Positions 11,770 to 63,956 of a stretch of 64,000 nucleotides of DNA are shown piece after piece. The translations under genes and the position numbers were made by a program. The DNA is taken from the IMG/VR virus record IMGVR_UViG_3300021387_000688, one strand, 5' to 3'. The notes under the pieces are model-generated. The model was given only the letters and a program-made list of their open reading frames with translations, made no database searches and had not been told where the DNA came from. Every line of letters begins with the position of its first letter. Position 1 is the first letter of the stretch. This DNA is from a virus. Lineage: Duplodnaviria > Caudoviricetes.

Positions 11770-12051
11770 ATGAACGAAGTTATTAATGTTTTGGATACCG
11801 GTATTCTAATTTCACCGGACCTTCCAGTTGAGAGGCCATTTAGGCAAACATGGGGTGGATATGAAAAGGATAATATATTTTATCTTTTCCATAAGCAATA
11901 TACTACAACTTATAAATTCCTCAAAAAAGTAGATCGTTATAATAAGAAGGTTAATTATCAATTAGTTATGCCAGACGGTAATGTTATCGTATTTGGGGAT
12001 GATAGCGAAGGTATTAAGGAAATGAGTAAATTCATTGAGGCAATACTTTAA
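11770..12051 (+). CDS. hypothetical protein (probably leaderless)
   Basis: TATATT-N6-ATG. Confidence 0.65.
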   Translation: MNEVINVLDTGILISPDLPVERPFRQTWGGYEKDNIFYLFHKQYTTTYKFLKKVDRYNKKVNYQLVMPDGNVIVFGDDSEGIKEMSKFIEAIL

Positions 12052-27672: not shown

Positions 27673-28398
27673 ATGGCAAAATATAATACACCATATAAAT
27701 ATGTTTTGGAAGGGATTCAAGACGCTATTGATATGGGATACCTTTCTGAAGACCGCAAGACTTGGTGGCTACAATGTAGTTGGCACATCAATGGAGAAGA
27801 CATAATTTGTTTCTTTGAAGTTCTTCAAATGTTGAAAATAGATGTATTTAGAAGAATGGGTGCACGTCCCGTTGTTATAGAATATACAGAAGGTGAAGAA
27901 GAAAACAATATAGAAGAAATAGGATTCGATGGCGGATACAAAATCTCATCTGAAAAATTCCCTCCAATTTATATAGGATGGTGTGCAGGTACAGGTGCAC
28001 CTGCAAAAGAATTGACACCTGTAACTAAATTGGCAATTAAAAATTCTACATTACCTTTTATAGAAAATAAATCAAAGAAAGCTAAGAAAGAAGCTAGGGT
28101 AAGTAATTTCGATTTAAGTCCTTATGATTTACGTAATCAAATTAAGAGTTATGTAAGAGGAAGATTGTATGATTTAGTAGGGGCTGATGGTGCAAGGAAT
28201 TTCAAAATCAATCAACCTAAATGGGATATGATATATGACGGTGCACAAGGTGGAACTAGCTTTGCAATCAGAACCCAAGGGGAAGATTACTATATGTCAA
28301 CTTTCATAAACTCGTCAATAGATTGGCAGGGTAAAGGATTCGAGGAATTCAAAGAAGATTTCGAAGATATGGTTCAAGAATGTTTTAAACAGATGTAG
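27673..28398 (+). CDS. two-module protein; putative virion cargo
   Basis: linker FIENKSKKAKKEA; C-terminal WQGKGFEEFKEDF repeat domain; upstream TACTAAAT. Confidence 0.75.
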   Translation: MAKYNTPYKYVLEGIQDAIDMGYLSEDRKTWWLQCSWHINGEDIICFFEVLQMLKIDVFRRMGARPVVIEYTEGEEENNIEEIGFDGGYKISSEKFPPIYIGWCAGTGAPAKELTPVTKLAIKNSTLPFIENKSKKAKKEARVSNFDLSPYDLRNQIKSYVRGRLYDLVGADGARNFKINQPKWDMIYDGAQGGTSFAIRTQGEDYYMSTFINSSIDWQGKGFEEFKEDFEDMVQECFKQM

Positions 28399-28410
28399 GA
28401 GAATAGAATT

Positions 28411-29145
28411 ATGTTAACAAAAGAAGATTTTATCAACAATTTCAAAGAGGCGCTTGAGGGTTCAGGTTATGAATTTAATGAAGCTAATTTAGACCGTGCT
28501 ATTAAATTCATGTTCAGGACTTATGCAACAGCATCTGAGGTAAAAGCTAATGCATATGATGAAGGAGAAAACCTTTCGTTAATAGACGTTAAATTAATGA
28601 TCAAAGACGACCTGGACACTCTGTTAAAAACAGGTCAATTTGAAGACCCTTTCGTAGAAGGTGCAATAGAAATGGGATTTGCAAACAACCTTGATGAAAT
28701 CCATGAAGGAGGACCAGATTCAAGCATAGGCGCAATCATCATTAAGAAAGAGAAGTCTGGCAGTTTGCACAAAAAGGTTGAGAGTATATTAAAAGGAGCT
28801 TTCAACAACCTTCTTTATTACGAAGTATCCAACAATGGAAAAGCTGCTAAAAGATTCTATGCAGTGGATGTACATGCAAGATATGATGATATAGGTCAAG
28901 GAGAGGCTTACGACTTCTTTGAGGAAACGGATCGACACGTAGATTACGCTTTTGTTCCTGCAAAATATGTAGAACCTTTCTTAGAATATGTTGCAGATGT
29001 ATTGAGAAAAAAGCATTTGTATAAAGGTTTATATATTTGCGGACTTCCAGTAAAACATGGTAGCGTAATCGCAGTAGAAACTGGTTGTATTCGTAGAGTA
29101 TTCTTCTCTTCTGAAGCAGCCAATGAAACAGCTGTAGCTATATAG
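28411..29145 (+). CDS. hypothetical protein in cargo cluster
   Basis: AGGAG RBS. Confidence 0.7.
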   Translation: MLTKEDFINNFKEALEGSGYEFNEANLDRAIKFMFRTYATASEVKANAYDEGENLSLIDVKLMIKDDLDTLLKTGQFEDPFVEGAIEMGFANNLDEIHEGGPDSSIGAIIIKKEKSGSLHKKVESILKGAFNNLLYYEVSNNGKAAKRFYAVDVHARYDDIGQGEAYDFFEETDRHVDYAFVPAKYVEPFLEYVADVLRKKHLYKGLYICGLPVKHGSVIAVETGCIRRVFFSSEAANETAVAI

Positions 29146-29154
29146 GAGTATTGG

Positions 29155-30462
29155 ATGGACCACAGATTTAGTAAAACCGATAGAGATTATATACATAATA
29201 TATCCCAAATGGCTACTGTTGAATATATGAGGGTTTCTAAAGAATTCTTAGACGCCATTGAAGCCCCTGAAGAATTAAAAGAAAAGTTTGAGAGTTTCAA
29301 AACCAAATATGGTAAATATCCTCAGTTTGCTTATAACTCTAAATTCAGAAGCACTAAAGAAAAGACTAGTATATCTTTCCAAAAAACAATAAACGGAAAT
29401 CACGTAGCAACTTTCTTTACAGAAGAAGATCTCGAAACTTTGGTAAACTGTTGGATTGATACTTACAATTCTATTTCTGAATATGAAAATAGTAGAAGCA
29501 ATGTAGAAAAAGTTGTAGAGAATGTTTGTGACTTCGTTAAAGATAATAAATTGGCTATAGGCTGTGCGGTATTTGGAGTTGCCGCTTTGGCTACTGTTGT
29601 TCCTGCAATTGTCAAAAAATACAAGTCGGAAGCAGATATAAGAGAAGCTGTTTCTTATTTTATGAATTCTGTTGATTGGGATGAAAACGATAGAGATAAA
29701 ACAATTGCTACAACTCACACTTCTGTTGATTCCAAAGGTAATTTACATACAACTACTCGAGCAAGAACATTAAGTGGTAATAAGAATACCTCAAAAGCTA
29801 TATTCACTGCAGTTGCAAAGTATGCTAAAAAGAATGGTATAACTGCAAGAGATGCATTCCACGAATTAGATGGTGCAAAAACTAGAACCCTTTTCGGAAA
29901 CATAACAGATGAAGATTTTTACAAGTTTGATATCATAAAAGATAACAACGGTGTATTAACTATCAATGTTTGGAATAATGCAGGTCGTAAACCTAAGACT
30001 TTCGAAATTGATACAAATACGTATCAGAGAATTGGTGACGTTCAATATTCTTGGAACGAAAGTAGAAAGAGATCTGGTCATATAAAAGAATCTAAAATAG
30101 CATGTGATAAGGCTAGTGTTTATCAATTTCAACTTAAGTTGTTAGAATTCTTTGATAACTATTTAGGCGACCCTATTGTAAAAGCTAAAGCAATAAAGGG
30201 GGATATGCCTAAACCTTTTACATATAGGAAATGGAATGATCGGGGTTCAGATTTTTATGAAGTTAGCTTGTTTGGCGAGTATGAAGATGATGTAGTAATT
30301 GAACTCCGTTCTGTTATGATTGGTGGAGGTTGTTCTTATAACTTATTAACAGGAGACGGATCTGAGTGCGAATATTGGACTGGAATGTCTTTGGACGAAT
30401 TTGAGAAAGACCTTAGTGAATGTTTTAAGATTGCTTTAAGCAATGAGGGTAAAAGGATATAG
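29155..30462 (+). CDS. three-module protein with internal hydrophobic segment; putative virion cargo
   Basis: VVEN then KLAIGCAVFGVAALA; linker WNESRKRSGHIKES; C-terminal WTGMSLDEFEKDL. Confidence 0.75.
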   Translation: MDHRFSKTDRDYIHNISQMATVEYMRVSKEFLDAIEAPEELKEKFESFKTKYGKYPQFAYNSKFRSTKEKTSISFQKTINGNHVATFFTEEDLETLVNCWIDTYNSISEYENSRSNVEKVVENVCDFVKDNKLAIGCAVFGVAALATVVPAIVKKYKSEADIREAVSYFMNSVDWDENDRDKTIATTHTSVDSKGNLHTTTRARTLSGNKNTSKAIFTAVAKYAKKNGITARDAFHELDGAKTRTLFGNITDEDFYKFDIIKDNNGVLTINVWNNAGRKPKTFEIDTNTYQRIGDVQYSWNESRKRSGHIKESKIACDKASVYQFQLKLLEFFDNYLGDPIVKAKAIKGDMPKPFTYRKWNDRGSDFYEVSLFGEYEDDVVIELRSVMIGGGCSYNLLTGDGSECEYWTGMSLDEFEKDLSECFKIALSNEGKRI

Positions 30463-30548
30463 GAAAGGCGCGAATTGTTCTACTAAGAAATACGCACACT
30501 TTATTGCCAAACTAACTATATTGAATAAATAAAAGGAGAGTAAAAGAA

Positions 30549-31310
30549 ATGGCAAGAACTATTAAAGACTATAACGAATACAAAGGTTTTACGCCTGCTC
30601 AGAAAAATAATGCATTCCATGGATTTGTTAATTTCTTAGACGATATTGGTGCGCCTTGGGAATCAAATAAAGATAAACAGGTATCCGGAAAGTATTGGGG
30701 TATCGAATTCACTCTTAATTATGCAGGTATGGGTGGTCACGCTTATACAATAGATGCAATGAATGTAGTAAAAGGAACTATTCAAGATCAGTGGGTTGGC
30801 GATTCTTACTCAGACTTCTTAGAAGATTTAAGTGAATTGAGAAACGAATATGGTGCATTACATTCAGGTCGTTATCCAGATGATCCTGAAAACTTAGAAG
30901 AGTCTAGAAAATTAAAAGAATCTGCTTCTTGGAAAAATAAATTTGAACAAAAAATAAAACAAAGAGTTGTAAGACTCTTCCAGGATTGGGTAGATGAGGA
31001 TAACGCTCAGGGAATGGTAGATGATTTTGATATTAACCCTGATAATGCAGTAGAAGAACTTATTAACGAAATCCTTGAAAACGAAGCAGATGAAATCCAC
31101 GAAGGAAGATATGAAGATTTCCTTTACACTATTATGGACGAAGAAGACATAAATCAGAAGGAAATCGAAAAAGTTGGAGAAGCTTATCTTGATAAACTAG
31201 AAGCCCTAAACATAGAAGAAAAGAGAAAAACATTTGGGGAATCTTATTGCAATAAATTAGAAAAACAAATGCAGTATGTTTCTGCTTTTAGTGATGAAGA
31301 TGAGGATTAA
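30549..31310 (+). CDS. two-module protein; putative virion cargo
   Basis: WVGDSYSDFLEDL domain; linker LEESRKLKES. Confidence 0.75.
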   Translation: MARTIKDYNEYKGFTPAQKNNAFHGFVNFLDDIGAPWESNKDKQVSGKYWGIEFTLNYAGMGGHAYTIDAMNVVKGTIQDQWVGDSYSDFLEDLSELRNEYGALHSGRYPDDPENLEESRKLKESASWKNKFEQKIKQRVVRLFQDWVDEDNAQGMVDDFDINPDNAVEELINEILENEADEIHEGRYEDFLYTIMDEEDINQKEIEKVGEAYLDKLEALNIEEKRKTFGESYCNKLEKQMQYVSAFSDEDED

Positions 31311-31312
31311 AA

Positions 31313-32164
31313 ATGAAAAAACTCAGGGAAGACTCTTTAGAAGACTATTCAAGTGAACTTAGTGATGTTTATCATTTTGCAAAAGCAAAACATGACGCGA
31401 CTGGAGCTATTAGAAAAAATTCTGGTCTTCCATACTTCGTTCATCCTGAAATGGTAGCTGAAGTAGTAGCGGCTTATGGGGGTACAGATGCCCAAATCGA
31501 AGCTGCTTTACTTCACGATACTGTAGAAGATACGGATACCACTGCAGAAGAACTAGAACGACTATACGGTCCAGAAGTTGCACAAATTGTAGAAGAAATC
31601 ACAAATTACAAGCCAGATGTTGAATATTATGGAAAGGAAGATTATATCAACCACGAGTTGGTAGAACTTTCAGATGAAGCACTTTTAGTTAAAGTTGCAG
31701 ATTGTGTTTGCAATTATTTGGATAGTCCAAAGCCAGGTCAAGCAGAAAGGTTAGTTAGAAACTTAAAATATTTAATTGAGTTTAGACCTAATTTGCCTGA
31801 CGGGGTTAGAAGATTACTTAAAAGTATTCCTCCATTGAACGATGTATATGATTTAGACAAAGATGAATTTGATGAACCTTACATTGATGATGAAGAAGGA
31901 TACCAAAGAATCGTAGCTTCCAAAAAGATGCCTAAAAATAAAATAAAAGAAGGTTATGCGGATATGACAGAAACCTTTGAAGAATTTGTTGCATCTAAAA
32001 AACTCAGCCCTGAAGATAAAAGTTATCTTAAGGATTTGTTGCAAAAGGAAGAAAGGATAGATTTTGAAGAGGGGGACAACACTGAAATTCAACTTTCCGT
32101 TTTAGATAGAGCTTATGAACATCTAAGAATGGATAATGTAGATCGTAGTTATTTCAATAAATAG
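31313..32164 (+). CDS. RelA/SpoT-type HD hydrolase (small alarmone hydrolase / Mesh1-like) with leader and C-terminal module
   Basis: H.....RKNSGLPYFVHP, AALLHDTVEDT, VKVAD...N; leader MKKLRED; linker MPKNKIKEG. Confidence 0.85.
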   Translation: MKKLREDSLEDYSSELSDVYHFAKAKHDATGAIRKNSGLPYFVHPEMVAEVVAAYGGTDAQIEAALLHDTVEDTDTTAEELERLYGPEVAQIVEEITNYKPDVEYYGKEDYINHELVELSDEALLVKVADCVCNYLDSPKPGQAERLVRNLKYLIEFRPNLPDGVRRLLKSIPPLNDVYDLDKDEFDEPYIDDEEGYQRIVASKKMPKNKIKEGYADMTETFEEFVASKKLSPEDKSYLKDLLQKEERIDFEEGDNTEIQLSVLDRAYEHLRMDNVDRSYFNK

Positions 32165-48901: not shown

Positions 48902-50686
48902 TTACAACTTTGCAATCAATCTATCAATATCTTTTTTAAGTTCTTCTATAGAATAAGAACTCCATCCTCCGCGCCTATCTTTTTCATTGTAAAGGTAGAG
49001 TTGAGCTTGTGTATCAGTAGAGGAAATATAAGCTACTACATATCTTCCTGGAACCTCTGAATCTTCAAATCTCATTTCAGTGTCTCCATCTTTATCTGGA
49101 CCTTCTTTTACTTTTTTGAAATTGATTGATTTCATTTCCTTTTCTATAAGGTCTTTAGCTACAGGAATGAAAGCTTTTGCTTTTTGTCTTCTTTCATATC
49201 CCCATGGATCTTCCAACTGTTCAAGAGGTTCTCCTAAATAGTTTTCAGCATCGTCTGGCAAGTTATCATTAAACAAATTTGAATTATAAGCAGAAGCTCT
49301 ACCTGCTTTTCCGAAAGAATGCATGTTAGATCTCAAGGCATCCTTTACAGCATCCCCTTTCCATGCAATCTTATAATGGGTATCGTACCCCCAACCAGAA
49401 CCATATCCTTTCTTTCTACCAACCTGGTCTACAAGATTGAAAGTGATTACATCTTCTTCATCATACTTTCCTTTCATAGCCATTTGATATTTCTTTGGAG
49501 AAATAATAGAATCGAAATTCCAAGAACCCCAAATGGAATCATCTACACGATATTCTTTAGAAACTAAAACTGCTTTGGCTTTACGTCTCTTTTCATCAAT
49601 TTCAATAATTACATAGTATTCAGGATTTTCATTAGAATCCTTTCTACCGATAGAAACGATGTCCCCTACTTCCAAACCTTTGAATTTGTTGTAACCTGCA
49701 GTATTACCATATACTAAATGGTCCCCGTCAACCTGAACTGTATACTCTTCATACTCGCGACCATCTTCAGTAGAATCTTCAGAAATTGTAAACTCTTCTG
49801 GAAATGAAACACCTGCACATGTTAAAGCATCCCAAACAATTTCATAGTTTTCAAATCTTTTAGAAGCTCTATCGTAATCAGATCCTTTGAAAATTTTATC
49901 ATTGAAAGAAATAGAATCTTCTACATCATATTCATCATATTCCGGTCCTTCTTTATGATAAGTACCTAAGAAAAATTCCCCCTTAAGTCTCCTACCATCA
50001 ATTTCGATTCCGGTTTTAATAATATTGTCAAACCATTTTTTAATTATACGGGATTCATAAATACGGCCATGTACTACAATTGTATAATCACCGTCTTTAA
50101 TATCAGCCCAAGTTCCTTTGTAAACTTTATCTGCATTTTTATTAAAGAATTTTTTAAGGTCTTTGATTCTTTCACTTGGACCTGAATATCCAGTCATTCC
50201 TCTATACAGCTGAGTATCCCAGAAACGATTTGGATTCTTTGTTACATTGTCATAAATATCAAATTGTCCAGGAGAAGTAAGAATTGCCCACTTAATAGTT
50301 TTTCTTGGGCGTTCATCCATATCATCCAATTCCTGATCTGTATACTTGTATTCTTCAACATCTGGATCATTTACAACTGGTTGCCAAGATTTATAAGTAC
50401 GCATATCAGTTCTTCCGTATTCTTCAGGGAAAGTATAATACTCAACTCCTGAACCATCAATGATTGGAAGATTTAATTCTTTTGACATTTCGTGAGCATA
50501 TTCCAAGGCATCTTCTACAATTGTATGGCCCTCAGTTGGCTTATAATACCCATATGTATATTCTTGGGTATCTACTCTTTTATCGTTTTGCCAAACTTCA
50601 ACTTTAACTGAATCTGCGTTTAGGTGGGAGAAAGGTATTAACCAAATACCATCTTTATGGACAAAGTGTTCCTGTAATTTTCTCAT
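48902..50686 (-). CDS. large multi-module protein with MRKLQE leader; putative virion cargo
   Basis: upstream AACTAATTTA; C-terminal WSSYSIEELKKDI. Confidence 0.75.
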   Translation of the reverse strand: MRKLQEHFVHKDGIWLIPFSHLNADSVKVEVWQNDKRVDTQEYTYGYYKPTEGHTIVEDALEYAHEMSKELNLPIIDGSGVEYYTFPEEYGRTDMRTYKSWQPVVNDPDVEEYKYTDQELDDMDERPRKTIKWAILTSPGQFDIYDNVTKNPNRFWDTQLYRGMTGYSGPSERIKDLKKFFNKNADKVYKGTWADIKDGDYTIVVHGRIYESRIIKKWFDNIIKTGIEIDGRRLKGEFFLGTYHKEGPEYDEYDVEDSISFNDKIFKGSDYDRASKRFENYEIVWDALTCAGVSFPEEFTISEDSTEDGREYEEYTVQVDGDHLVYGNTAGYNKFKGLEVGDIVSIGRKDSNENPEYYVIIEIDEKRRKAKAVLVSKEYRVDDSIWGSWNFDSIISPKKYQMAMKGKYDEEDVITFNLVDQVGRKKGYGSGWGYDTHYKIAWKGDAVKDALRSNMHSFGKAGRASAYNSNLFNDNLPDDAENYLGEPLEQLEDPWGYERRQKAKAFIPVAKDLIEKEMKSINFKKVKEGPDKDGDTEMRFEDSEVPGRYVVAYISSTDTQAQLYLYNEKDRRGGWSSYSIEELKKDIDRLIAKL

Positions 50687-53410: not shown

Positions 53411-54058
53411 TTATTTTTCCACGCGTTTTCTAGTTATACTTTTTCTGGAGTTATTTCTATCTATCTTGGCTTCATCCAAATCTTCGTCATCTTCGTCATC
53501 TTCATTCCAAGATTCTACATAAGCATCAAGATCTGCTTTAGCGGCCTTGAAAAGTTTTTTATTACCTTTTACATAATCTATGAAGTCAGAATCGTCTTCA
53601 AAATCATCCTCATCATAAGAATCCCAATAAGGATCATTTTCATCAAAGTTATCTGTAAAGGCGCAACAACAACCATCCTTGAAGTCTGTGTCTCCCCAAA
53701 GATCTGTATCTCCATAATATTCACCCCATCCCAATTCCTCTGCATCATTAATACCTACTAAACGATCCCATACGGCTTGAGCTTTAGGCGGCCAATCTTT
53801 ATCTTCTTTTAAAGATTTCTTAGATTCAACTAATCCGCGTTTTCTGTAAATATAATCCAAAGCCGTTCCTGGAGTTGGTTTCCAAGTTGCAGCAACTTCT
53901 GCATCATCCTCTCCTTCTTCCTCTTCATAACCTGAAGCATCTTCAGTAACGCAAGGTCCCAAAGCTACATCGGCAAGTACATCATCTACTCTACCTCTAA
54001 TTTCGGCTTCATCGTCGTTAGCTCCGATTTTAACCAATACTGTTAAATACTTAATCAT
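53411..54058 (-). CDS. acidic two-module protein; putative virion cargo
   Basis: linker LVESKKSLKED. Confidence 0.7.
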   Translation of the reverse strand: MIKYLTVLVKIGANDDEAEIRGRVDDVLADVALGPCVTEDASGYEEEEGEDDAEVAATWKPTPGTALDYIYRKRGLVESKKSLKEDKDWPPKAQAVWDRLVGINDAEELGWGEYYGDTDLWGDTDFKDGCCCAFTDNFDENDPYWDSYDEDDFEDDSDFIDYVKGNKKLFKAAKADLDAYVESWNEDDEDDEDLDEAKIDRNNSRKSITRKRVEK

Positions 54059-55872: not shown

Positions 55873-56973
55873 TTAAGCTTTGCAAAGGATGCGAGGGATA
55901 ATTTCACCCATCTTGGCAATTCTGATTTTGTCTCCGATTCGGATTCCATGATTGTTAATGATGTTCAAGTTACAAAGATTAGCTCTTGTAACAGTTGTAC
56001 CATCCAATTCAACTGGTTCGATGATTCCTACTGGAGTCAAAGAAGCTCCTGACATAGACCAGTCAATTCCAATTAATGTAGATTCAGCAATCATCAAATC
56101 GAACTTAAGTGCGGTTGCATTTTTCTGAACCTTTTCCAACTGATCTTTGTAATCCATTCTGTTTTCAAAGATTACAATTCCGTCGATTGCAAAGTCTTCT
56201 TCCTCTGTACCACGTACTTTAGAAAGTGTTTCGCGGAACTTAAGAATTTCATCAATGTTCTTGCAAACTTTATGTTCTGGAAGTGTAAAGCCGCATTCCT
56301 TCAAGAAATCAAACATTTCTGATTTTGTAGCAAATTCAACTCCACGAACGTCGTAAGCAAAGAACTGCATGTACTGAAGAGCATCGATTTCTTCATCTGT
56401 ATACTCTTCAAACTTCTTATTCATCAAACCTGAACCTGCGTTTCTTGGATTCTTTTTATCTTCGAAACATTTATGAGATTTGAAAGCCTTGTTACCAAGT
56501 TCAAATTCTCCACGAACCTGCATTGTCAAGTTATTTGGAACTGTCTTTGGGAATTTAAGATACTGAGCAATCTTGAGTTTATCGAAACCCGTATAACCAT
56601 TTCCGCGAGAAATAAGATGTGCAAGTTTACCATTTTCATACTGAACTTCGAAACCAGCGCCATCCATTTTAGAACTTACATCATATTCTTTATAAGGATG
56701 TCTACGAATCCAATCTTTGAAAGCTTCTACAGTCATGCACTTATCAAGTGTACCTGTAACAAGCTTATGATCCATTTTTGCATAACCTGCAGCTGAAGCA
56801 ACTTCTTCGTCTTCATCACCTGCCATTCCTGCAATCAAAGGATTCTCAGGATCAAGTACACGAAGCTCTTCGATCATTGCATCGTAAGCTTTATCGCTGA
56901 TCAATTCTTTTCCACTGTAATATGCATCTGCATAGTATTTAATCTGGTTTATAAGTTCTTCTGTTCTATTCAT
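55873..56973 (-). CDS. ligA: NAD-dependent DNA ligase, adenylation + OB domains only
   Basis: YY...ISD..YD, KMDG, SRGNG..G, VRGE, NPRNAGSG, DGIV, ALKF, GEIIP then stop. Confidence 0.88.
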   Translation of the reverse strand: MNRTEELINQIKYYADAYYSGKELISDKAYDAMIEELRVLDPENPLIAGMAGDEDEEVASAAGYAKMDHKLVTGTLDKCMTVEAFKDWIRRHPYKEYDVSSKMDGAGFEVQYENGKLAHLISRGNGYTGFDKLKIAQYLKFPKTVPNNLTMQVRGEFELGNKAFKSHKCFEDKKNPRNAGSGLMNKKFEEYTDEEIDALQYMQFFAYDVRGVEFATKSEMFDFLKECGFTLPEHKVCKNIDEILKFRETLSKVRGTEEEDFAIDGIVIFENRMDYKDQLEKVQKNATALKFDLMIAESTLIGIDWSMSGASLTPVGIIEPVELDGTTVTRANLCNLNIINNHGIRIGDKIRIAKMGEIIPRILCKA

Positions 56974-56991: not shown

Positions 56992-57276
56992 TTAGGATAC
57001 TTCATTTACTAAAAATAAAACATTTTTTACAATTTCTGAAACCAATTCTTTTGTAGTAAAGGTAGGGTCGTTAAAACCTAACTTAATTTCTTCTATTGTT
57101 TCAGGGGTTTTGAGATTAATTTTAAGTAAGATTAATTCTCTCTTCTTTTTAACTTTAGCAATATACTTGAATGTGCCTTCTTTAAAAGGTAGAACTTTAG
57201 TTTGCAATCTTGCAGATGCTAAAGATGACGCGATTTTTACTGCTTGATATAAGTCGTTTCTGTCAATTCTGTTCAT
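56992..57276 (-). CDS. hypothetical protein
   Basis: 94 aa ORF. Confidence 0.55.
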   Translation of the reverse strand: MNRIDRNDLYQAVKIASSLASARLQTKVLPFKEGTFKYIAKVKKKRELILLKINLKTPETIEEIKLGFNDPTFTTKELVSEIVKNVLFLVNEVS

Positions 57277-57311
57277 AGTTACTATATAATATATTATAGG
57301 AGACGCCCCAA

Positions 57312-59075
57312 TTGAAATTACTAAAAGAATCTAATAACATCCAATCAAAAGAATTCGGTGACTGGGCAGTAGTGTTTTGGAAGAAAGGTTCTAAAACATT
57401 ATCTATTGCTCAAAATCAAGGGGATCCAGGTGCAACAGATTTTTGGATGGTAGGAACAACTACTAGACAATTTGATTATGAAAGTGGCTGGCTTCCAAAC
57501 AAAGAATGGTCAACTGCAATCAAAGGTCATTTCCCAAAAGATAAAGCAATTCAAATGGCGAAAGAGCAAGCAATGAAAGGATTAAAAGAAAGCCATATAA
57601 ATATCCCTAATAAATTCTCACTAAGTTTAAAAGAGTCTGCCGGCTTTGTGAAAAATGAAAATGTTTACGACTTTACAAACTTAGATGAGGATGAGAATAC
57701 TTTCAACACTATCATTAAAGAGTTTAATTTGAGGGAACTTTCTAGGGAAGAAATAGAGTCCCTAGGATTAGATATAAGTGTTCAAAATTCTGTAGTGGGT
57801 GTTTATGGTAGTTATGTTTCAGGAAATGGTATACCTGATGTAGTTGTATACGACTTTGAAATTTCCGACAGACAAAGACCTTATAAGTACACAATCAATG
57901 TAGTACAGATACAGGAACATGACAGGGCAGAGAAATATTTTTATATAATTTCTTCAAGATTATCTCAAATATTAGATGATCAATCAAGAGGATTAAAAGA
58001 AGGTTGCCTCGATCATATAAAAGATAAATGGCAATCAGAATTAGATAAAGGGGTTAAACCAAAAATTTTAATGGACCCTTGGGCTGTTTGTGAAGGAATG
58101 AAATGGTTAGGAAAAGATGGTTGGATTAGAGTAGAGGAAGTATTAACTCCAACAGAATACGAAGAACCTTATCCTGATTTTTATATGGAAATCTTCGACC
58201 AACATACTTGTGCAATCTCCCACGATATTTATACAATAAATGAAATTAATTCTTACGTTAGAAACACAAAGGCAAGATTGGTAAACAAGGGTATAAAGGA
58301 GAATAAAATGAAAAACTTAAAAGAAAGTGTAGAAGAAAGATATAAAATAGATATCTCCCCTATCCAAGGCAGTGGGGAAGAAATGTTATCTTTCCAAGAA
58401 ATGGTAGGTGAAGTACTTGAGAATATGGGGGGCATAGATAACATCGTAGAAATTGATGAAGAGTTCTTCGAAAGGAAATATCAATATTACTTAAAAAGTC
58501 ATCCTCGCAAAGAACATGGAGGTTGTAGATATGAAGATGATGAAGCCTGGATGCTTGCAATGAAATCTACTTTGAACAACGACCTTTCAATGTTGAACGA
58601 TGATATGGTTTACGATTATTACATGAGTGGCCGTTATAATGAAAGAAGCGATGAGTATAAAGCTATTTGGGATAAGTGCGTTCACGAAATCGAAAAGAAA
58701 GACCCAGACGATGGAAGTAGGTTCTACGATAGGTGGGATTTCACAACTCCAAGAGTAAACGAATCTAAAAAAGTAAGTAAGAAAAAAGTTCAGGAATCAA
58801 GAAAACCTTTCACTCCGGATATTCCTAATAACTTGTTAGAAATCCAAAACAATATGGAAGATGTGTTCACTATACATAGTTTATCAATAGCTGCAAGTGA
58901 ATCTGCAAATGGACTTGCAAAAGATATTCTTACATTAACAGGAACTAAAGTAGGGGAGTTGTTATTTACACCTGCAGGTTACTACATGGCAGGACCTCGT
59001 GAAGATATTTACTGGGAAGGTTCTACTTTAGAAGAATTCGAAGCTGACGTAACAGATTTAGCATATACATTGTAA
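57312..59075 (+). CDS. polyprotein-like multi-module protein; putative virion cargo
   Basis: TTG start after AGGAG; LLKES, GLKES, SLKES, GLKEG, GIKEN, NLKES, VNES, VQES; C-terminal WEGSTLEEFEADV. Confidence 0.8.
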   Translation: MKLLKESNNIQSKEFGDWAVVFWKKGSKTLSIAQNQGDPGATDFWMVGTTTRQFDYESGWLPNKEWSTAIKGHFPKDKAIQMAKEQAMKGLKESHINIPNKFSLSLKESAGFVKNENVYDFTNLDEDENTFNTIIKEFNLRELSREEIESLGLDISVQNSVVGVYGSYVSGNGIPDVVVYDFEISDRQRPYKYTINVVQIQEHDRAEKYFYIISSRLSQILDDQSRGLKEGCLDHIKDKWQSELDKGVKPKILMDPWAVCEGMKWLGKDGWIRVEEVLTPTEYEEPYPDFYMEIFDQHTCAISHDIYTINEINSYVRNTKARLVNKGIKENKMKNLKESVEERYKIDISPIQGSGEEMLSFQEMVGEVLENMGGIDNIVEIDEEFFERKYQYYLKSHPRKEHGGCRYEDDEAWMLAMKSTLNNDLSMLNDDMVYDYYMSGRYNERSDEYKAIWDKCVHEIEKKDPDDGSRFYDRWDFTTPRVNESKKVSKKKVQESRKPFTPDIPNNLLEIQNNMEDVFTIHSLSIAASESANGLAKDILTLTGTKVGELLFTPAGYYMAGPREDIYWEGSTLEEFEADVTDLAYTL

Positions 59076-59086
59076 GGAGCAGAAAG

Positions 59087-59938
59087 ATGAAAAGAAACTT
59101 AAAAGAAGATGACGGTGGAAAGATGGAATATCTAAAAGCATTGGAAGATGCTTTGGAAGCAGAAAACTATCTCTGCACTTATAACGACAAAAAGTTAATA
59201 GTAGATACAGACTTGGGAATGTTCGATATCGATTATGTTCCTGGAGAATGGGTTTATGTAATTCATTTCTCTGGTCCAAATAAAGAGTTTACAAAATACA
59301 AAAAGTATACTGATGACGTAGTAGAACTCATTGTAAATGTTGTAGAAGATCAATTAGATGATTGGAGTACAGAGCATTATATAGAATCTAAGAAGCCAAT
59401 TAAAAAGGGTATTAAAGAAGACCGTAGCTTAGGTCGTACACCTAAACCTTATAAAGCAGTTGAAAGGGGTACTACTGTTTTAGAACGTGACGGGGAACCA
59501 TGGACTGTAATCGAAAAAGGTACAGTAAGTGAATTAAATGAAAAATATCCAGAATGTCAAATATATGAGCGCCCTTACTATGATGCAGTATATGTAGGAG
59601 ATAATATATGTCAGTATGGGCATGAGGATAGAGGAAAGCATATATTCGTTTACGGTGAGCACGATGATGTCTATAATAATGTACTTGCTTATTATGATGA
59701 TGGACCTTCTCGTTCGTGGAGTGTTTATATGAGAGAATCTAGAAACTTAAAAGAAGGTGATGTAGAAGACGGGTGGTGTTTTATTTTCGGATCTGGAAAC
59801 TATAGTGTATATCAAAGAGGGGCCAATGAATATAAAGTAGAATGGAGTGACGGAGTTTGTTCTATTGAACCGATCCTTTGTAGCTCTGAAGAAGAAGCTA
59901 AACAAATCGTCGAGGAGTTACAGGATGCAGAAAAATAA
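59087..59938 (+). CDS. three-module protein; putative virion cargo
   Basis: MKRNLKED; YIESKKPIKKGIKED; MRESRNLKEG. Confidence 0.8.
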   Translation: MKRNLKEDDGGKMEYLKALEDALEAENYLCTYNDKKLIVDTDLGMFDIDYVPGEWVYVIHFSGPNKEFTKYKKYTDDVVELIVNVVEDQLDDWSTEHYIESKKPIKKGIKEDRSLGRTPKPYKAVERGTTVLERDGEPWTVIEKGTVSELNEKYPECQIYERPYYDAVYVGDNICQYGHEDRGKHIFVYGEHDDVYNNVLAYYDDGPSRSWSVYMRESRNLKEGDVEDGWCFIFGSGNYSVYQRGANEYKVEWSDGVCSIEPILCSSEEEAKQIVEELQDAEK

Positions 59939-61058
59939 AAAAGAAAGTACTTTAGACTTGTTTGGACAGAATGCTAAAGTACATAAAGATAAAAATTGGA
60001 GACCGGACCTTATGAAGAAACAAATTAAAGAAAGAAGGATGCCTTATAGCGAAATACCTCAAGTAGAAGATTATATAGGTACCGCAAGAGCTAAAGGATT
60101 TGAATGTATTGAGGGTTCTTTAGTTAGTAAAGCTAAAGAAGTATTTACTCCCGTAATTATGAAGTTTAATGGAAATGTAGAAGCCAGGCTTAGAATATTC
60201 AGTCAAGGTAACTATACAATCTTTACAGACAAAGGTGGATGGGAAGGATTAGATTTAGAAGAGTTTGAAAAGGATTTGGACGACCTTCGTTCTTTATATG
60301 AAAGTGTTTCTAAAAAATCTAATAGAATTAAAGAATCTACAGCAGAAGACGATGCAGCTTTTAAAGAAGCAAAATCTTATATTAAAAAATCTTATCAAAA
60401 ATACGTACATAAGCTTTCAATAAGAAATGGTAAAGTAGATGCATTATCTCTTCAAAATTTCTTGTCAAGTCAAATAGGAAGAAAATTAAACTTCCATACA
60501 GCTAGTGGTAAAATGTTCTGGGAACTTTCAGAAGAAGAAGCTAATATTGAAGACGTAAATGTTACTCTCAATGCTTATGATATTCGTACAGATCTTTATG
60601 GAAGAAACTATGATAAAGTTAGAATCTATATCAACCAAGGTTCAAATTTAAAGAAAATTGATACTTCTTGTTGGAATAAAAATGTAAGGGCTTATAGGGC
60701 TGGGGTTGAGCAAAATGCAGATCCTATTGCAGTAGAACTTTCAAATATAATTATGCCACTTTGGAACAAAACAAAGTTCCCAGGAATACAAAGTGGAGAG
60801 ATTTACAAATCAGCTATTATGAAAACAAAGCCAGGAACTCCTAATACTATTGGTAGCACTTTAGATTTGGATAGAGTCGAAGCTTTGGGTAATATGTTGA
60901 AAAGGGAAAGCCGTGTTAATAATGTAGTTGTAGAGCCTACTAATGATATTGCAAAGAGAGTTAGAATTACTTTCGAATATGATTACCATGAAGTAGAAAT
61001 CTTGGCAATGGTTGCACAATTCGTTTGTCAAGTTGAATTAAGCATAGATTGTAAATAG
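59925..61058 (+). CDS. multi-module protein; putative virion cargo
   Basis: GAGGAG RBS then MQKNKKES; QIKER; WEGLDLEEFEKDL; LYESVSKKSNRIKES. Confidence 0.8.
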   Translation: MQKNKKESTLDLFGQNAKVHKDKNWRPDLMKKQIKERRMPYSEIPQVEDYIGTARAKGFECIEGSLVSKAKEVFTPVIMKFNGNVEARLRIFSQGNYTIFTDKGGWEGLDLEEFEKDLDDLRSLYESVSKKSNRIKESTAEDDAAFKEAKSYIKKSYQKYVHKLSIRNGKVDALSLQNFLSSQIGRKLNFHTASGKMFWELSEEEANIEDVNVTLNAYDIRTDLYGRNYDKVRIYINQGSNLKKIDTSCWNKNVRAYRAGVEQNADPIAVELSNIIMPLWNKTKFPGIQSGEIYKSAIMKTKPGTPNTIGSTLDLDRVEALGNMLKRESRVNNVVVEPTNDIAKRVRITFEYDYHEVEILAMVAQFVCQVELSIDCK

Positions 61059-61067
61059 GGGTTCAGA

Positions 61068-62909
61068 ATGAGAAAACTTAAAGAAGATAAAGAAGTTCCA
61101 GGAATGAAATGGTTTAGAGGTGGCCCAGTATTCAAGCCATATTTCCTCTCTGGAGTAGGAGTTGATGCAGCAGCTGTAGACAGTTATATAGACAAATTGG
61201 TTAAGGAACACAATAATCGTTTTGAAATAAAAGACCCTCGTATTACAGAAGAATTGTATTTTGAAGTAAAAGATTGGGATACAGGAGATGGAGACAATGT
61301 TTATGTAGACATTCTATTCAATCGTGAATTCGATAGAGAAATGAATGCAGAGAAATGGGGTAAAAAATCTTATGGGGCTACCAATGAGCATGGTTATGTA
61401 GAAGATTTACTAAACAATGGCTATTTAGAAAAACTTGGAATAACAGATGCTAAAATTACAGGAGTAGGATGGGACTCATCAAAACATGTACCAAGATGGA
61501 GTATTGAATTGTTCACATTCTCTGACAGAAATATAGACGGTACATTCAAACGTCCAAATACATCTGATTCATGGACTAGCTCTCATAATGTAAATGGTAC
61601 AGAACCTTTTAATAAAGAAGAAGGAAAAGAAATCAGTAAAGCAGTTACGGATTACATCATAGAGTTATTAAGAGCAAACCCTGCAAGAGTTTATTATAAG
61701 CCTTCTAAAGGAGTAACAGAAGTAAACATAGCTGATTACAGAACTCGTAGCTATGATCCTTCTTGGAAAGGAAGTTATACCCATAATACCGGTTGGTTTG
61801 GATTCACTTGTTACATTGAAGATGCTTATGATGAAAATGCAATCGATTGGAGAGGTAGACAAGGAGATACTTTTAGGGCAGACGAAGATGTTATTACATC
61901 CTTGCTACGAGATAAAGCAGCAGAAACTTTAAACGATTTCCTTTATGAGTTTAATCTAGAAGTTGTACCAGATGGTTGCAAAGCTGAATGGTATCACGGT
62001 AGTGAAGAGGATGATGAGAACGGACATTTGTTTGACGTTTCTATTAAGTTTAAAGAAATAGGTATTGATCCTGACAAATCTTATTTTGCACATCAAGGCA
62101 ATTCTTTCAAAGATTATTGGCCTGGTTCTGAACCAAAAGATCTTTACAAAGGTAAAACTTTCAAAAGGAATCCAAAAAGAATAAAAGAAGGTTTATTCGA
62201 TAATGTAGAATTTGGAGCAGAATTATCTACACCTCCTATGGAAAAATATAAAGACGTTGTATCTATGAGCATAGATGAAGGCATTTTGAATAGAGAAACT
62301 CCAAAGGAAACTATTGAAAATACTATTTACGAAGTATTGCGTATGTTCCCAGAAGATAATATAAATAACGAAATCCTCAGAGATTATGTATGCAAAAAAG
62401 TATATGAAAGAAATCCTTACGAAGAAGAAGCAGATGAATATTTAAAGGAATCTAAAAGTCTAAAAGAAGATGTAATTTTACATTTCGACCTAGAAGATGG
62501 TACTCACAAAGCCCTTCCATTTAAGTCTAAAGAAGAAGCTTTAGAATATTTGGATAGTGATGATTTTCCAGTTGGCGAATGGGTTGGAAGTTATGATATT
62601 GAAACTGTTAAAGAAACTAAACCTGTTAACGGAGATGATTACGACTACCAAGTTCTCCAACCAGAAGATGTTGAAAAGTTGAATGATCTTGTAAAAGAAA
62701 TAAAAGATGGTAATGAAGATGGTTGGGTTGACTGGATTGATCTTGCAATAGAAATTGGTAGAAAATATCTAGGAAAGAGTCTTTCAAGATATGGCGAAGG
62801 AGAGTATACACCATTCGAAGATTTAATAAACGAGTGTGAAACATTTGTATATTATAAAACACCTGGCATTGACAGAATGTTAAAGAAGAGACTTGACTTG
62901 CAAAACTAA
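61068..62909 (+). CDS. multi-module protein; putative virion cargo
   Basis: MRKLKED; KRIKEG; YLKESKSLKED. Confidence 0.8.
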   Translation: MRKLKEDKEVPGMKWFRGGPVFKPYFLSGVGVDAAAVDSYIDKLVKEHNNRFEIKDPRITEELYFEVKDWDTGDGDNVYVDILFNREFDREMNAEKWGKKSYGATNEHGYVEDLLNNGYLEKLGITDAKITGVGWDSSKHVPRWSIELFTFSDRNIDGTFKRPNTSDSWTSSHNVNGTEPFNKEEGKEISKAVTDYIIELLRANPARVYYKPSKGVTEVNIADYRTRSYDPSWKGSYTHNTGWFGFTCYIEDAYDENAIDWRGRQGDTFRADEDVITSLLRDKAAETLNDFLYEFNLEVVPDGCKAEWYHGSEEDDENGHLFDVSIKFKEIGIDPDKSYFAHQGNSFKDYWPGSEPKDLYKGKTFKRNPKRIKEGLFDNVEFGAELSTPPMEKYKDVVSMSIDEGILNRETPKETIENTIYEVLRMFPEDNINNEILRDYVCKKVYERNPYEEEADEYLKESKSLKEDVILHFDLEDGTHKALPFKSKEEALEYLDSDDFPVGEWVGSYDIETVKETKPVNGDDYDYQVLQPEDVEKLNDLVKEIKDGNEDGWVDWIDLAIEIGRKYLGKSLSRYGEGEYTPFEDLINECETFVYYKTPGIDRMLKKRLDLQN

Positions 62910-62951
62910 GAAGGTTTTGTAGAGAACTAAATTATTAAAGAGGATTAAAAC

Positions 62952-63956
62952 ATGGGTGCATGGTGGATTCGAAATGGTCATATAGTTGATATGGGAGAGG
63001 ACGATACCCACGGTCAATTGTTCTTAGAGGACCCTGATTTCTTTGGGTTCTCTAATGGTATTATCAATGACATTTGCAATCGGTACGAAATTAATGATTT
63101 ATGGGATTTGAAATACGATGATGACTTTGATAACGAATCCCACCCTGCATGGGACGAAATGATGGGTATAGCTTTAGCCAAAGGAGCTATACGTGTTAGA
63201 AATTTCAAAAACGAAACTTGGGTAACTTACGACATTCATTGTAGAAAAGATTTAATAAACGCAATGTTAGATTATCCTGAAGTATTTACTGGTATAATAC
63301 ATATAGGTGCTATTAACGGTTACGAAGGTATAGTACATGGGGGATATGGAGGGGATGAACGCTACAATTCTGTAGAAGAAGCCCTTCAATCACTAACTGA
63401 AAATAAGATTATGAAAAACAAAAGAATAAAAGAATCAGAAGAAAACTTTGATTCTAAAGACCCAGATTTATTTGATAATATCCAAGATGCCATTTATTCT
63501 ATCTTAACTGATTACGATAATGAAGTTTGGGAGAAAGCTGGTATTAAAAGATATTTTGAAGAACCTACAACTCATGGTGTTTTAGTTAGAGACCAATACG
63601 GTTCAAAAGTATTCCCAATTCATTATGGATTAAATGGCCCAGGTAAAGATGAAGATTATTTTGAAGCTATGGCCAAATTCATTGTAGATTTGGAAGACAT
63701 TCTTAAACCAACTTACCCAGAAGTAAATGTATACTGTGTTAATGTTTTAGTAGACTGCGCAGATGATGTAGGTACAGTAGTATTTGGAATAAGTGTTGGA
63801 GAAGACATAGACCCTAAAGAATCTATGAAGTGGAAAGAATCTGAAGGCGGAGTTGGTAAACCTCAAGATTCTGATGAAGAGAAAACTTCTAAATGGAATA
63901 AAGGTATTTATAAAATAGATCATTACAATGAACAAATTGATGAATGGGAGAAATAA
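62952..63956 (+). CDS. multi-module protein; putative virion cargo
   Basis: upstream AACTAAATTA; LTENKIMKNKRIKES; KESMKWKES. Confidence 0.8.
   Translation: MGAWWIRNGHIVDMGEDDTHGQLFLEDPDFFGFSNGIINDICNRYEINDLWDLKYDDDFDNESHPAWDEMMGIALAKGAIRVRNFKNETWVTYDIHCRKDLINAMLDYPEVFTGIIHIGAINGYEGIVHGGYGGDERYNSVEEALQSLTENKIMKNKRIKESEENFDSKDPDLFDNIQDAIYSILTDYDNEVWEKAGIKRYFEEPTTHGVLVRDQYGSKVFPIHYGLNGPGKDEDYFEAMAKFIVDLEDILKPTYPEVNVYCVNVLVDCADDVGTVVFGISVGEDIDPKESMKWKESEGGVGKPQDSDEEKTSKWNKGIYKIDHYNEQIDEWEK

Follow-up and report, generated by a model that had tools for sequence, protein, structure and literature searches.

The 64,000-nucleotide virus DNA IMGVR_UViG_3300021387_000688 (Caudoviricetes; the whole stretch is called the window here) ends in five consecutive genes, at positions 57,312 to 63,956, in which a short peptide tag, [LI]KE followed by Ser, Asp, Gly or Asn, recurs at gene starts and between the parts of the encoded proteins. 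The window has a GC (guanine plus cytosine) content of 33-37%, with short genes tightly packed on both strands. Exact protein look-ups returned near-identical ENA metagenome contigs of 355-398 kb (e.g. ERZ12302816 NODE_7_length_397621) as well as Logan and JGI contigs, and the source is an uncultured gut phage of roughly 400 kb. The DNA read amounted to about 130 kb, comprising the window and the loci L002-L015, which walk about 65 kb past its end. The five genes are predicted to encode precursor polyproteins, each a chain of independent modules, and are laid out as follows (aa, amino acids; a slash marks a predicted cut).

57312..59075, forward strand: polyprotein gene 1, 587 aa with a TTG start (open reading frame list); leader MKLLKE/S, then about six modules; seven sites
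59087..59938, forward strand: polyprotein gene 2, 283 aa; leader MKRNLKE/D and two double linkers
59925..61058, forward strand: gene 3, 377 aa from the ATG at 59925, with a longer GTG form from 59847; IKE/R, a recurring module of about 90 aa, then the linker LYE/SVSKKSNRIKE/S
61068..62909, forward strand: polyprotein gene 4, 613 aa; leader MRKLKE/D; modules at residues 12-336, 390-448 and 467-613 (from an AlphaFold model, an alignment of relatives called A1, and homology breakpoints)
62952..63956, forward strand: gene 5, 334 aa and no leader; LTE/NKIMKNKRIKE/S separates two acidic modules

The modules are independent units of 60-370 aa and mostly acidic (isoelectric point 4.1-5.2), while the linker peptides are basic. 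The cluster runs beyond the window end to about 71.1 kb, and gene 64472-66034 in this extension holds seven sites.

A recurring tag in five polyprotein genes

The original prediction had counted about 16 sites by hand in the five genes. Our recount gave 15 [LI]KE[SDGN] sites in 2220 residues, or 16 when the IKER of the long form of gene 3 is included. Shuffling within each protein gave a mean of 0.70 sites, and none of 5000 shuffles reached 15; the motif is above the expectation from composition. Expressed as a rate, the five genes carry 6.8 sites per 1000 aa versus 0.44 in the remaining 18,235 aa of the window, where eight sites were found, four or five of them in similar orphan genes. The rate in the five genes is about 35 times that of window proteins not counted as cargo. 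No enrichment was observed for [LI]KE before any residue except Ser, Asp, Gly or Asn.

The sites follow a consistent pattern, with a hydrophobic residue at P3 (Leu, Ile, Met or Val at recurrent sites), Lys or Arg almost always at P2, Glu at P1 and a small or polar residue at P1'. As had been described, three sites are N-terminal leaders of the form M-K/R-x-L-K-E-S/D (MKLLKES, MKRNLKED and MRKLKED), and the remainder lie behind basic residues, many of them as double sites around a basic spacer. These double linkers consist of hydrophobic-x-E-S, a K/R-rich spacer and [LIM]KE[SDGN], and the distance between their two Glu residues is either 11 residues (long form, e.g. IE/SKKPIKKGIKE/D) or 6 (short form, e.g. 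MRE/SRNLKE/G). Individual tags are listed below with the values from structure prediction (pLDDT, predicted local distance difference test) and the alignments of relatives.

57312..57332, forward strand: leader MKLLKES; low pLDDT at residues 1-7
57582..57638, forward strand: two LKE/S sites 15 residues apart (residues 91-109) at the end of module 1; 78 homolog alignments stop at residue 94
57993..58004, forward strand: single site LKE/G, residue 228; relatives start a gene with this module as MKENKVLKE/G
58293..58328, forward strand: linker IKE/NKMKNLKE/S, with an in-frame AAGGAG and ATG; the gene of the relative P0056 begins here
58761..58799, forward strand: long linker NE/SKKVSKKKVQE/S
59384..59422, forward strand: long linker IE/SKKPIKKGIKE/D
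59729..59758, forward strand: short double linker MRE/SRNLKE/G
60300..60338, forward strand: long linker YE/SVSKKSNRIKE/S
61068..61088, forward strand: leader MRKLKED; pLDDT below 50 for residues 1-11; conserved in alignment A1
62181..62192, forward strand: IKE/G after KGKTFKRNPKR at the end of module 1, within the low-pLDDT stretch 337-389
62442..62471, forward strand: short double linker LKE/SKSLKE/D, within the low-pLDDT stretch 449-466
63399..63437, forward strand: long linker TE/NKIMKNKRIKE/S

The codons used at the sites vary (TCT, AGC, AGT and TCA for Ser; TTA, CTA, CTT and TTG for Leu), so selection and conservation act on the peptide and not on the DNA. Pairs of linkers were 41-74% identical at the DNA level, except for one pair at 92%. 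A DNA or RNA signal, considered as another reading of the motif, was ruled out by the varying codons and the 41-74% identity. In the exceptional pair the linker at 59384-59422 matches that at about 65798-65836 (L002:14731-14769), within gene 64472, at 36 of 39 nt; their flanking modules are unrelated, and this near-identical pair may be a recent recombination junction.

Outside the five genes the original prediction had listed the same leader or linker in dispersed genes. The tag was confirmed at 29155, 30549, 31313, 47981, 53411 and 54313, while only looser variants were observed at 27673 (FIEN..KKEA), 33189 (MRKYITEA) and 48902 (MRKLQEH). Its statement that recognised metabolic enzymes carry no leader holds for the ligase, the CCA-adding enzyme and others, and one internal IKED in the catalytic domain of the CCA-adding enzyme is taken as chance. 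Several of the dispersed genes form a second group.

27673..32164, forward strand: second cluster of motif-bearing genes (27673, 28411, 29155, 30549 and 31313)
31313..32164, forward strand: gene with MKKLRE/D, an HD_4 domain, KNKIKE/G and a tail module
53411..54058, reverse strand: dispersed gene with the linker LVE/SKKSLKE/D

The HD_4 domain of gene 31313 (RelA/SpoT-type hydrolase; PF13328, expectation value E 5.7e-12) is placed between leader and linker and comes without a synthetase domain. It is the only recognisable domain among the motif-bearing genes of the window.

Tags and module boundaries

Searches with the 613-aa protein of gene 4 returned 40 relatives and those with the 587-aa protein of gene 1 returned 107, on contigs of up to 422 kb. 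We compared the points at which homology to these relatives breaks off with the positions of the tags. For gene 4, 19 of 27 distinct internal breakpoints fell within 8 residues of a site (7% expected), and for gene 1 the figure was 31 of 49 (16% expected), with breakpoints at residues 93-97, 224, 324-342 and 491-498. Relatives share ancestry and these counts are not of independent events, but the clustering of breakpoints on the sites is nevertheless plain in the alignments. The proposal that the sites lie at apparent domain boundaries is borne out by this clustering and by the coincidence of the sites with low-confidence linkers in the AlphaFold model described below.

The tags are also retained when modules change their surroundings. 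The leader form is N-terminal in 107 of 146 related proteins. Module 1 of gene 4 is found in relatives either at the N-terminus behind MKKLKE/S or internally behind quite different upstream modules, and it ends in KGKTFKRNPKR-[IV]KE-[GS] in every relative that reaches its C-terminal end; both ends of this module keep the tag in relatives with as little as about 50% identity, and the modules next to it vary. One module was observed behind a leader in one protein (MKENKVLKE/GRLDHIK) and behind a linker in another (..SRGLKE/GCLDHIK), with the same first residues after the predicted cut, and the gene 1 module that follows IKE/NKMKNLKE/S opens a relative's gene as MRIQKMKLKE/S. Judged from these alignments, leader and internal linker are two forms of one element, and both are predicted to yield the same mature N-terminus. 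The same tag system was observed in related gut-phage contigs of 300-420 kb in which the order of modules differs, including an NCBI assembly contig of 402,784 bp with the same tags in polyproteins of 249-872 aa and another module order.

Structure prediction, one of the checks suggested with the original prediction, placed the sites between folded parts. An AlphaFold2 model of the 613-aa protein, built on a 29-row alignment, contains three folded parts (residues 12-336, 390-448 and 467-613), and its stretches with pLDDT below 50 include residues 1-11, 337-389 and 449-466; all four sites of the protein lie inside these three stretches. The model for gene 1 was poor (mean pLDDT 44) and usable for residues 8-94 only, a domain predicted at pLDDT 80-91 that lies between the leader and the LKES site at 91-94. 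Motif enrichment, the boundary position, the equivalence of leader and linker, and conservation at the protein level together make up the demonstrated part of the case.

The modules themselves resembled little in the collections searched. None of the five proteins matched a Pfam or PHROG family. Ten proteins of the cluster gave no Pfam match at E up to 0.05-0.1, including no signature domain of polyvalent proteins (zincin-like MPTase, LPD, ParB/ART). Foldseek comparison of module folds with PDB and BFVD returned no match at E of 0.001 or below, a wide VIA-align search gave a best Z of 6.6 for a small helical module only, and an Atlas shape search gave TM (template modelling) scores of at most 0.24 by query, with, on the question of polyvalent domains, a weak shape resemblance only (TM 0.16), and no match in its feature search. 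When 20 cargo-like proteins were compared among themselves by BLAST, no pair was found at E of 1e-3 or below. Beyond the contigs described above, megablast and tblastn against phage records found no relatives, with no hit to the 613-aa protein by tblastn among 50,697 phage records. The viral contig collection gave no match to the 613-aa protein, module alignment A1 or the RecA-like protein, and the genome contig collection none to P0007. For the RecA-like protein, tblastn indicated no close cultured lineage.

Proposed processing in the prohead and its alternatives

The form of the tags recalls the sites of phage head-maturation proteases. The cuts of the T4 protease gp21 fall behind L/I-x-E, and in internal proteins such a cut takes off a 10-residue N-terminal capsid targeting sequence (PMC9026906), in line with the original prediction. 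In giant phages, phiKZ gp175 and SPN3US gp245 cut after S/A-x-E, their propeptides hold redundant sites, and SPN3US favours Ser at P1' (PMC9026906, PMC10052503). The published specificities of T4 gp21 and the phiKZ-type enzymes fit the tag pattern and count for a head protease, and the presence of HD_4, an effector-type enzyme domain, between the leader and linker of gene 31313 counts for a cargo role.

We propose, at a probability of about one half, that the tags are cut in the prohead by a Glu-specific phage protease, most likely the head-maturation protease, and that the cargo is packaged and injected. Each module would be preceded by a short basic tag, a hydrophobic residue, Lys or Arg and Glu followed by Ser, Asp, Gly or Asn, which takes the form M-K/R-x-L-K-E at the start of a gene. 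An internal double site would represent the end of the previous module (hydrophobic-x-E-S) joined to a former leader (K/R-rich, [LIM]KE). Each tag would serve both as address and as cut site. The polyproteins would enter the prohead, where the protease would act after Glu much as T4 gp21 does on internal proteins, setting free the modules and, with them, basic peptides only 6 or 11 residues long; on infection, the modules would exit together with the DNA. A module encoded alone and the same module within a fusion would give identical mature products; modules could therefore be joined, split or shuffled at the tags at almost no selective cost, and mosaic architectures and a free interchange of fused and split forms would be the consequence. 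We infer cleavage, the identity of the protease, packaging and injection alike, and with them the dozens of injected domains.

More tentatively, this clade of 300-420 kb gut phages may have turned the T4-style address and cut site into a universal plug-and-play connector, by which a tag of 6-8 residues would load and free any module. The head would then hold a combinatorial arsenal of dozens of injected proteins and a pool of basic peptides of 6 or 11 residues.

Several observations weigh against processing in the head. Some leaders have only six residues, against ten in the T4 targeting peptide. The head would have to accommodate, alongside the DNA, a large number of strongly acidic proteins. 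In some relatives the module that opens gene 1 stands at the N-terminus with no leader ahead of it (MINKKEFGDW...). The PHROG scans found no head family among 85 window proteins and 81 proteins of the neighbouring loci, and the walked 65 kb comprised metabolic, queuosine, NrdD, RecA and transfer RNA (tRNA) regions and a ClpP-like gene, with no head genes. This divergent ClpP-like gene product, P0147, is the only protease in the DNA read, and it scored 4.7e-44 against an ATP-dependent protease PHROG versus 6.7e-23 against head-maturation proteases. The window has two recurrent promoter-like elements, (T/A)CTATATT (TCTATATT-like) and ACTAAWT, and the operon 57312-62909 (the first four genes) is led by ACTATATAAT, which is nearer to the former; with ACTATATAAT rather than ACTAAWT in this place, late expression is a possibility only. 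The sequence pattern is what was observed, and cleavage and a place in the virion are predicted from it.

L015:3924-4688 (about 112.9 kb on the window scale): P0147, ClpP-fold protease of 254 aa, between QueE (radical SAM) and a RecA-like gene

P0147 has a C-terminal coiled coil and a Lys-rich basic tail (Pfam 2.6e-12; PDB ClpP 1e-7). It could be the processing enzyme, though its genomic context gives no sign of this, its neighbours being the queuosine (QueE) and RecA genes and not portal or capsid.

The same pattern might also be read without any cleavage, the tags being short linear docking or spacer motifs by which whole polyproteins are recruited to a scaffold, a chaperone or, through the basic stretch, the DNA, or are kept flexible. 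The models place the motif in stretches that are probably disordered, and basic; repetition would raise avidity, and the N4 virion RNA polymerase, a polyvalent protein, is packaged unprocessed (PMC5512222). However, the strict Glu-small residue step, the hydrophobic P3 and the pairs at fixed spacing are typical of the sites of this phage protease class, and covalent linkage seems irrelevant, to judge by how freely modules occur fused or separate. We consider uncut docking unlikely.

Similarly low odds were given to cytoplasmic cleavage by a dedicated protease, of the phage or of the host, an expression strategy like that of RNA viruses in which the modules would act, unpackaged, in the producing cell. 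It would account equally well for the boundary, conservation and leader/linker data. The promoter-like element of the first four genes belongs to the class that heads most non-structural operons of the window, the PHROG scans of the window and neighbouring loci placed no head genes nearby, and the gene of a free-standing ClpP-like protease lies about 49 kb downstream. Against this, we know of no ClpP-type enzyme that acts as a site-specific, Glu-directed processing protease. Nor does cytoplasmic processing explain why single-module genes begin directly with a cleavable tag. In T4, head targeting is the role of a short leader that ends in L/I-x-E (PMC9026906).

Very improbable is a third explanation, that the linkers are fossil gene junctions in which an A-rich M-K-K-L-K-E start, helpful for initiation, survived in frame after fusion and in some cases still acts as an internal start: the linker at 58293-58328 retains an in-frame AAGGAG and ATG, the P0056 gene starts exactly at its equivalent and several linkers contain Met, yet most internal linkers are free of Met while [LIM]KE[SDGN] is kept in relatives at 50% identity, the upstream half-site hydrophobic-x-E-S is the end of the previous module with no role in initiation, and the encoding of Ser by both TCN and AGY codons means that the RNA sequence is not what is kept.

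Processing of packaged polyproteins in the head would place the system close to the T4 internal proteins (IPI-III and Alt), which likewise have a short leader ending in hydrophobic-x-Glu before a small residue and are hypervariable cargo genes sharing only that leader (PMC9026906). It differs from them in that the tag also joins many modules within a polypeptide, often as a double site of fixed length, and in that leaders span 6-8 residues, Lys or Arg occupies P2 in nearly every case and the modules are acidic where those of T4 are basic. No sequence similarity to these T4 proteins was detected in the five proteins by Pfam, PHROG or the tblastn search of phage records with the 613-aa protein, and the roughly 130 kb of DNA read yielded no homologue of gp21. 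The head and ejection proteins of phiKZ, 201phi2-1 and SPN3US (cut by gp175/gp245) offer a comparison from giant phages, with tens of head-internal proteins cut after Glu at a three-residue motif and redundant sites. Their P3 residue is small (Ser, Ala or Gly) in place of the Leu, Ile, Met or Val observed here, and they discard long propeptides where we predict a chain of folded modules; the phiKZ-type motif [AGS]xE was not enriched in the five genes (19.4 versus 16.1 per 1000).

Polyvalent proteins, described by Iyer et al. (2017), combine many effector-type domains in one polypeptide, are rampantly shuffled and are predicted to be delivered with the DNA (PMC5512222). They share with the proteins described here the presence of multiple independent, shuffled modules per polypeptide, which in our case match no known family besides the HD_4 of gene 31313. 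Unlike them, with their known domains and often a built-in zincin-like peptidase, the five proteins contain no detected peptidase and would have a stereotyped linker read by a protease in trans. The system works like T4 internal proteins and polyvalent proteins, yet by sequence it is a member of neither. In the polyproteins of positive-strand RNA viruses, 3C-like protease sites (hydrophobic residue, Gln or Glu, small residue) lie at every domain boundary. That resemblance is an analogy only, since the present case is a DNA phage, its polyproteins are spread over many genes and no 3C-like protease was recognised.

We found no account in the literature of repeated protease-type linkers joining orphan modules in the polyproteins of DNA phages, and even without packaging, polyprotein linkers of this type and regularity are apparently undescribed for them. 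Should cutting of the tags in the head prove correct, the injected proteome of an entire clade of uncultured giant phages could be read off from sequence by a simple rule, and dozens of orphan modules would be first-minute effectors, for example candidate anti-defence or host-takeover proteins. Neutral fusion and fission at a shared connector would explain rapid evolution of the arsenal, and the tag would provide a very short natural means of loading foreign proteins into large capsids.

Promoter-like elements, modules and neighbouring genes

Both promoter-like elements recur in front of window genes. (T/A)CTATATT was observed upstream of many genes, for example at 11770 on the forward strand and at 1241, 10281, 21142, 39239 and 52796 on the reverse strand. 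Examples of ACTAAWT include 27646, 40014, 54272 and 62926, and on the reverse strand 50712, 41240, 35367 and 11734. ACTAAWT precedes 27673, 30549, 54313, 62952 and 48902-50686, with 27673 and 30549 carrying both elements, and gene 5 has its own ACTAAAT element 26 nt upstream. The association of ACTAAWT with motif-bearing genes (4/10 versus 9/91, P = 0.02) is a weak one at the level of genes and was not relied on.

Some of the modules show features of their own. A weakly paralogous module of about 90 aa was observed three times (58797-59072, 59985-60323 and 28060-28395), visible by alignment only. It ends in W-E/Q-G-x-x-[LF]-EEF-x-x-D, and its copies directly follow the basic tags VQE/S, IKE/R and KKE/A. 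Module 1 of gene 4 (61086-62189, residues 7-374) keeps invariant polar residues across relatives (GSYTHN, WYHGS, H-x-GNS-x-K, NGTEPF and EEG-x-E) and by this conservation looks like an enzyme, though without a family or fold match. The first module of gene 1, about 90 aa (57330-57590, residues 7-93), is widespread. More than 80 proteins from many gut-metagenome contigs, about 791 aa long and mostly beginning MKNFKEA, contain it.

The PHROG scan of the 85 window proteins otherwise identified functions in nucleotide and tRNA metabolism, including NAD ligase, CCA-adding enzyme, QueC, ThyA, nudix hydrolase and homing endonucleases. The NAD-dependent DNA ligase (55873-56973, reverse strand) has 366 aa only, comprising adenylation and OB domains without the Zn-finger, HhH and BRCT parts. 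Immediately ahead of gene 1, a divergent intergenic region of 35 nt (57277-57311) is nearly palindromic with a TATAATATATTATA core and serves both 56992-57276 on the reverse strand, which has no Shine-Dalgarno sequence, and the TTG start at 57312 on the forward strand.

Further downstream, L010:12151-14442 (reverse strand, about 100.3-102.6 kb on the window scale) encodes an orphan protein of 763 aa with three tags in its first 66 residues (SLRE/S, TLRE/S and LLKE/S) and one more 50 residues before the C-terminal end. It is possibly a large cargo protein carrying a propeptide at either end.

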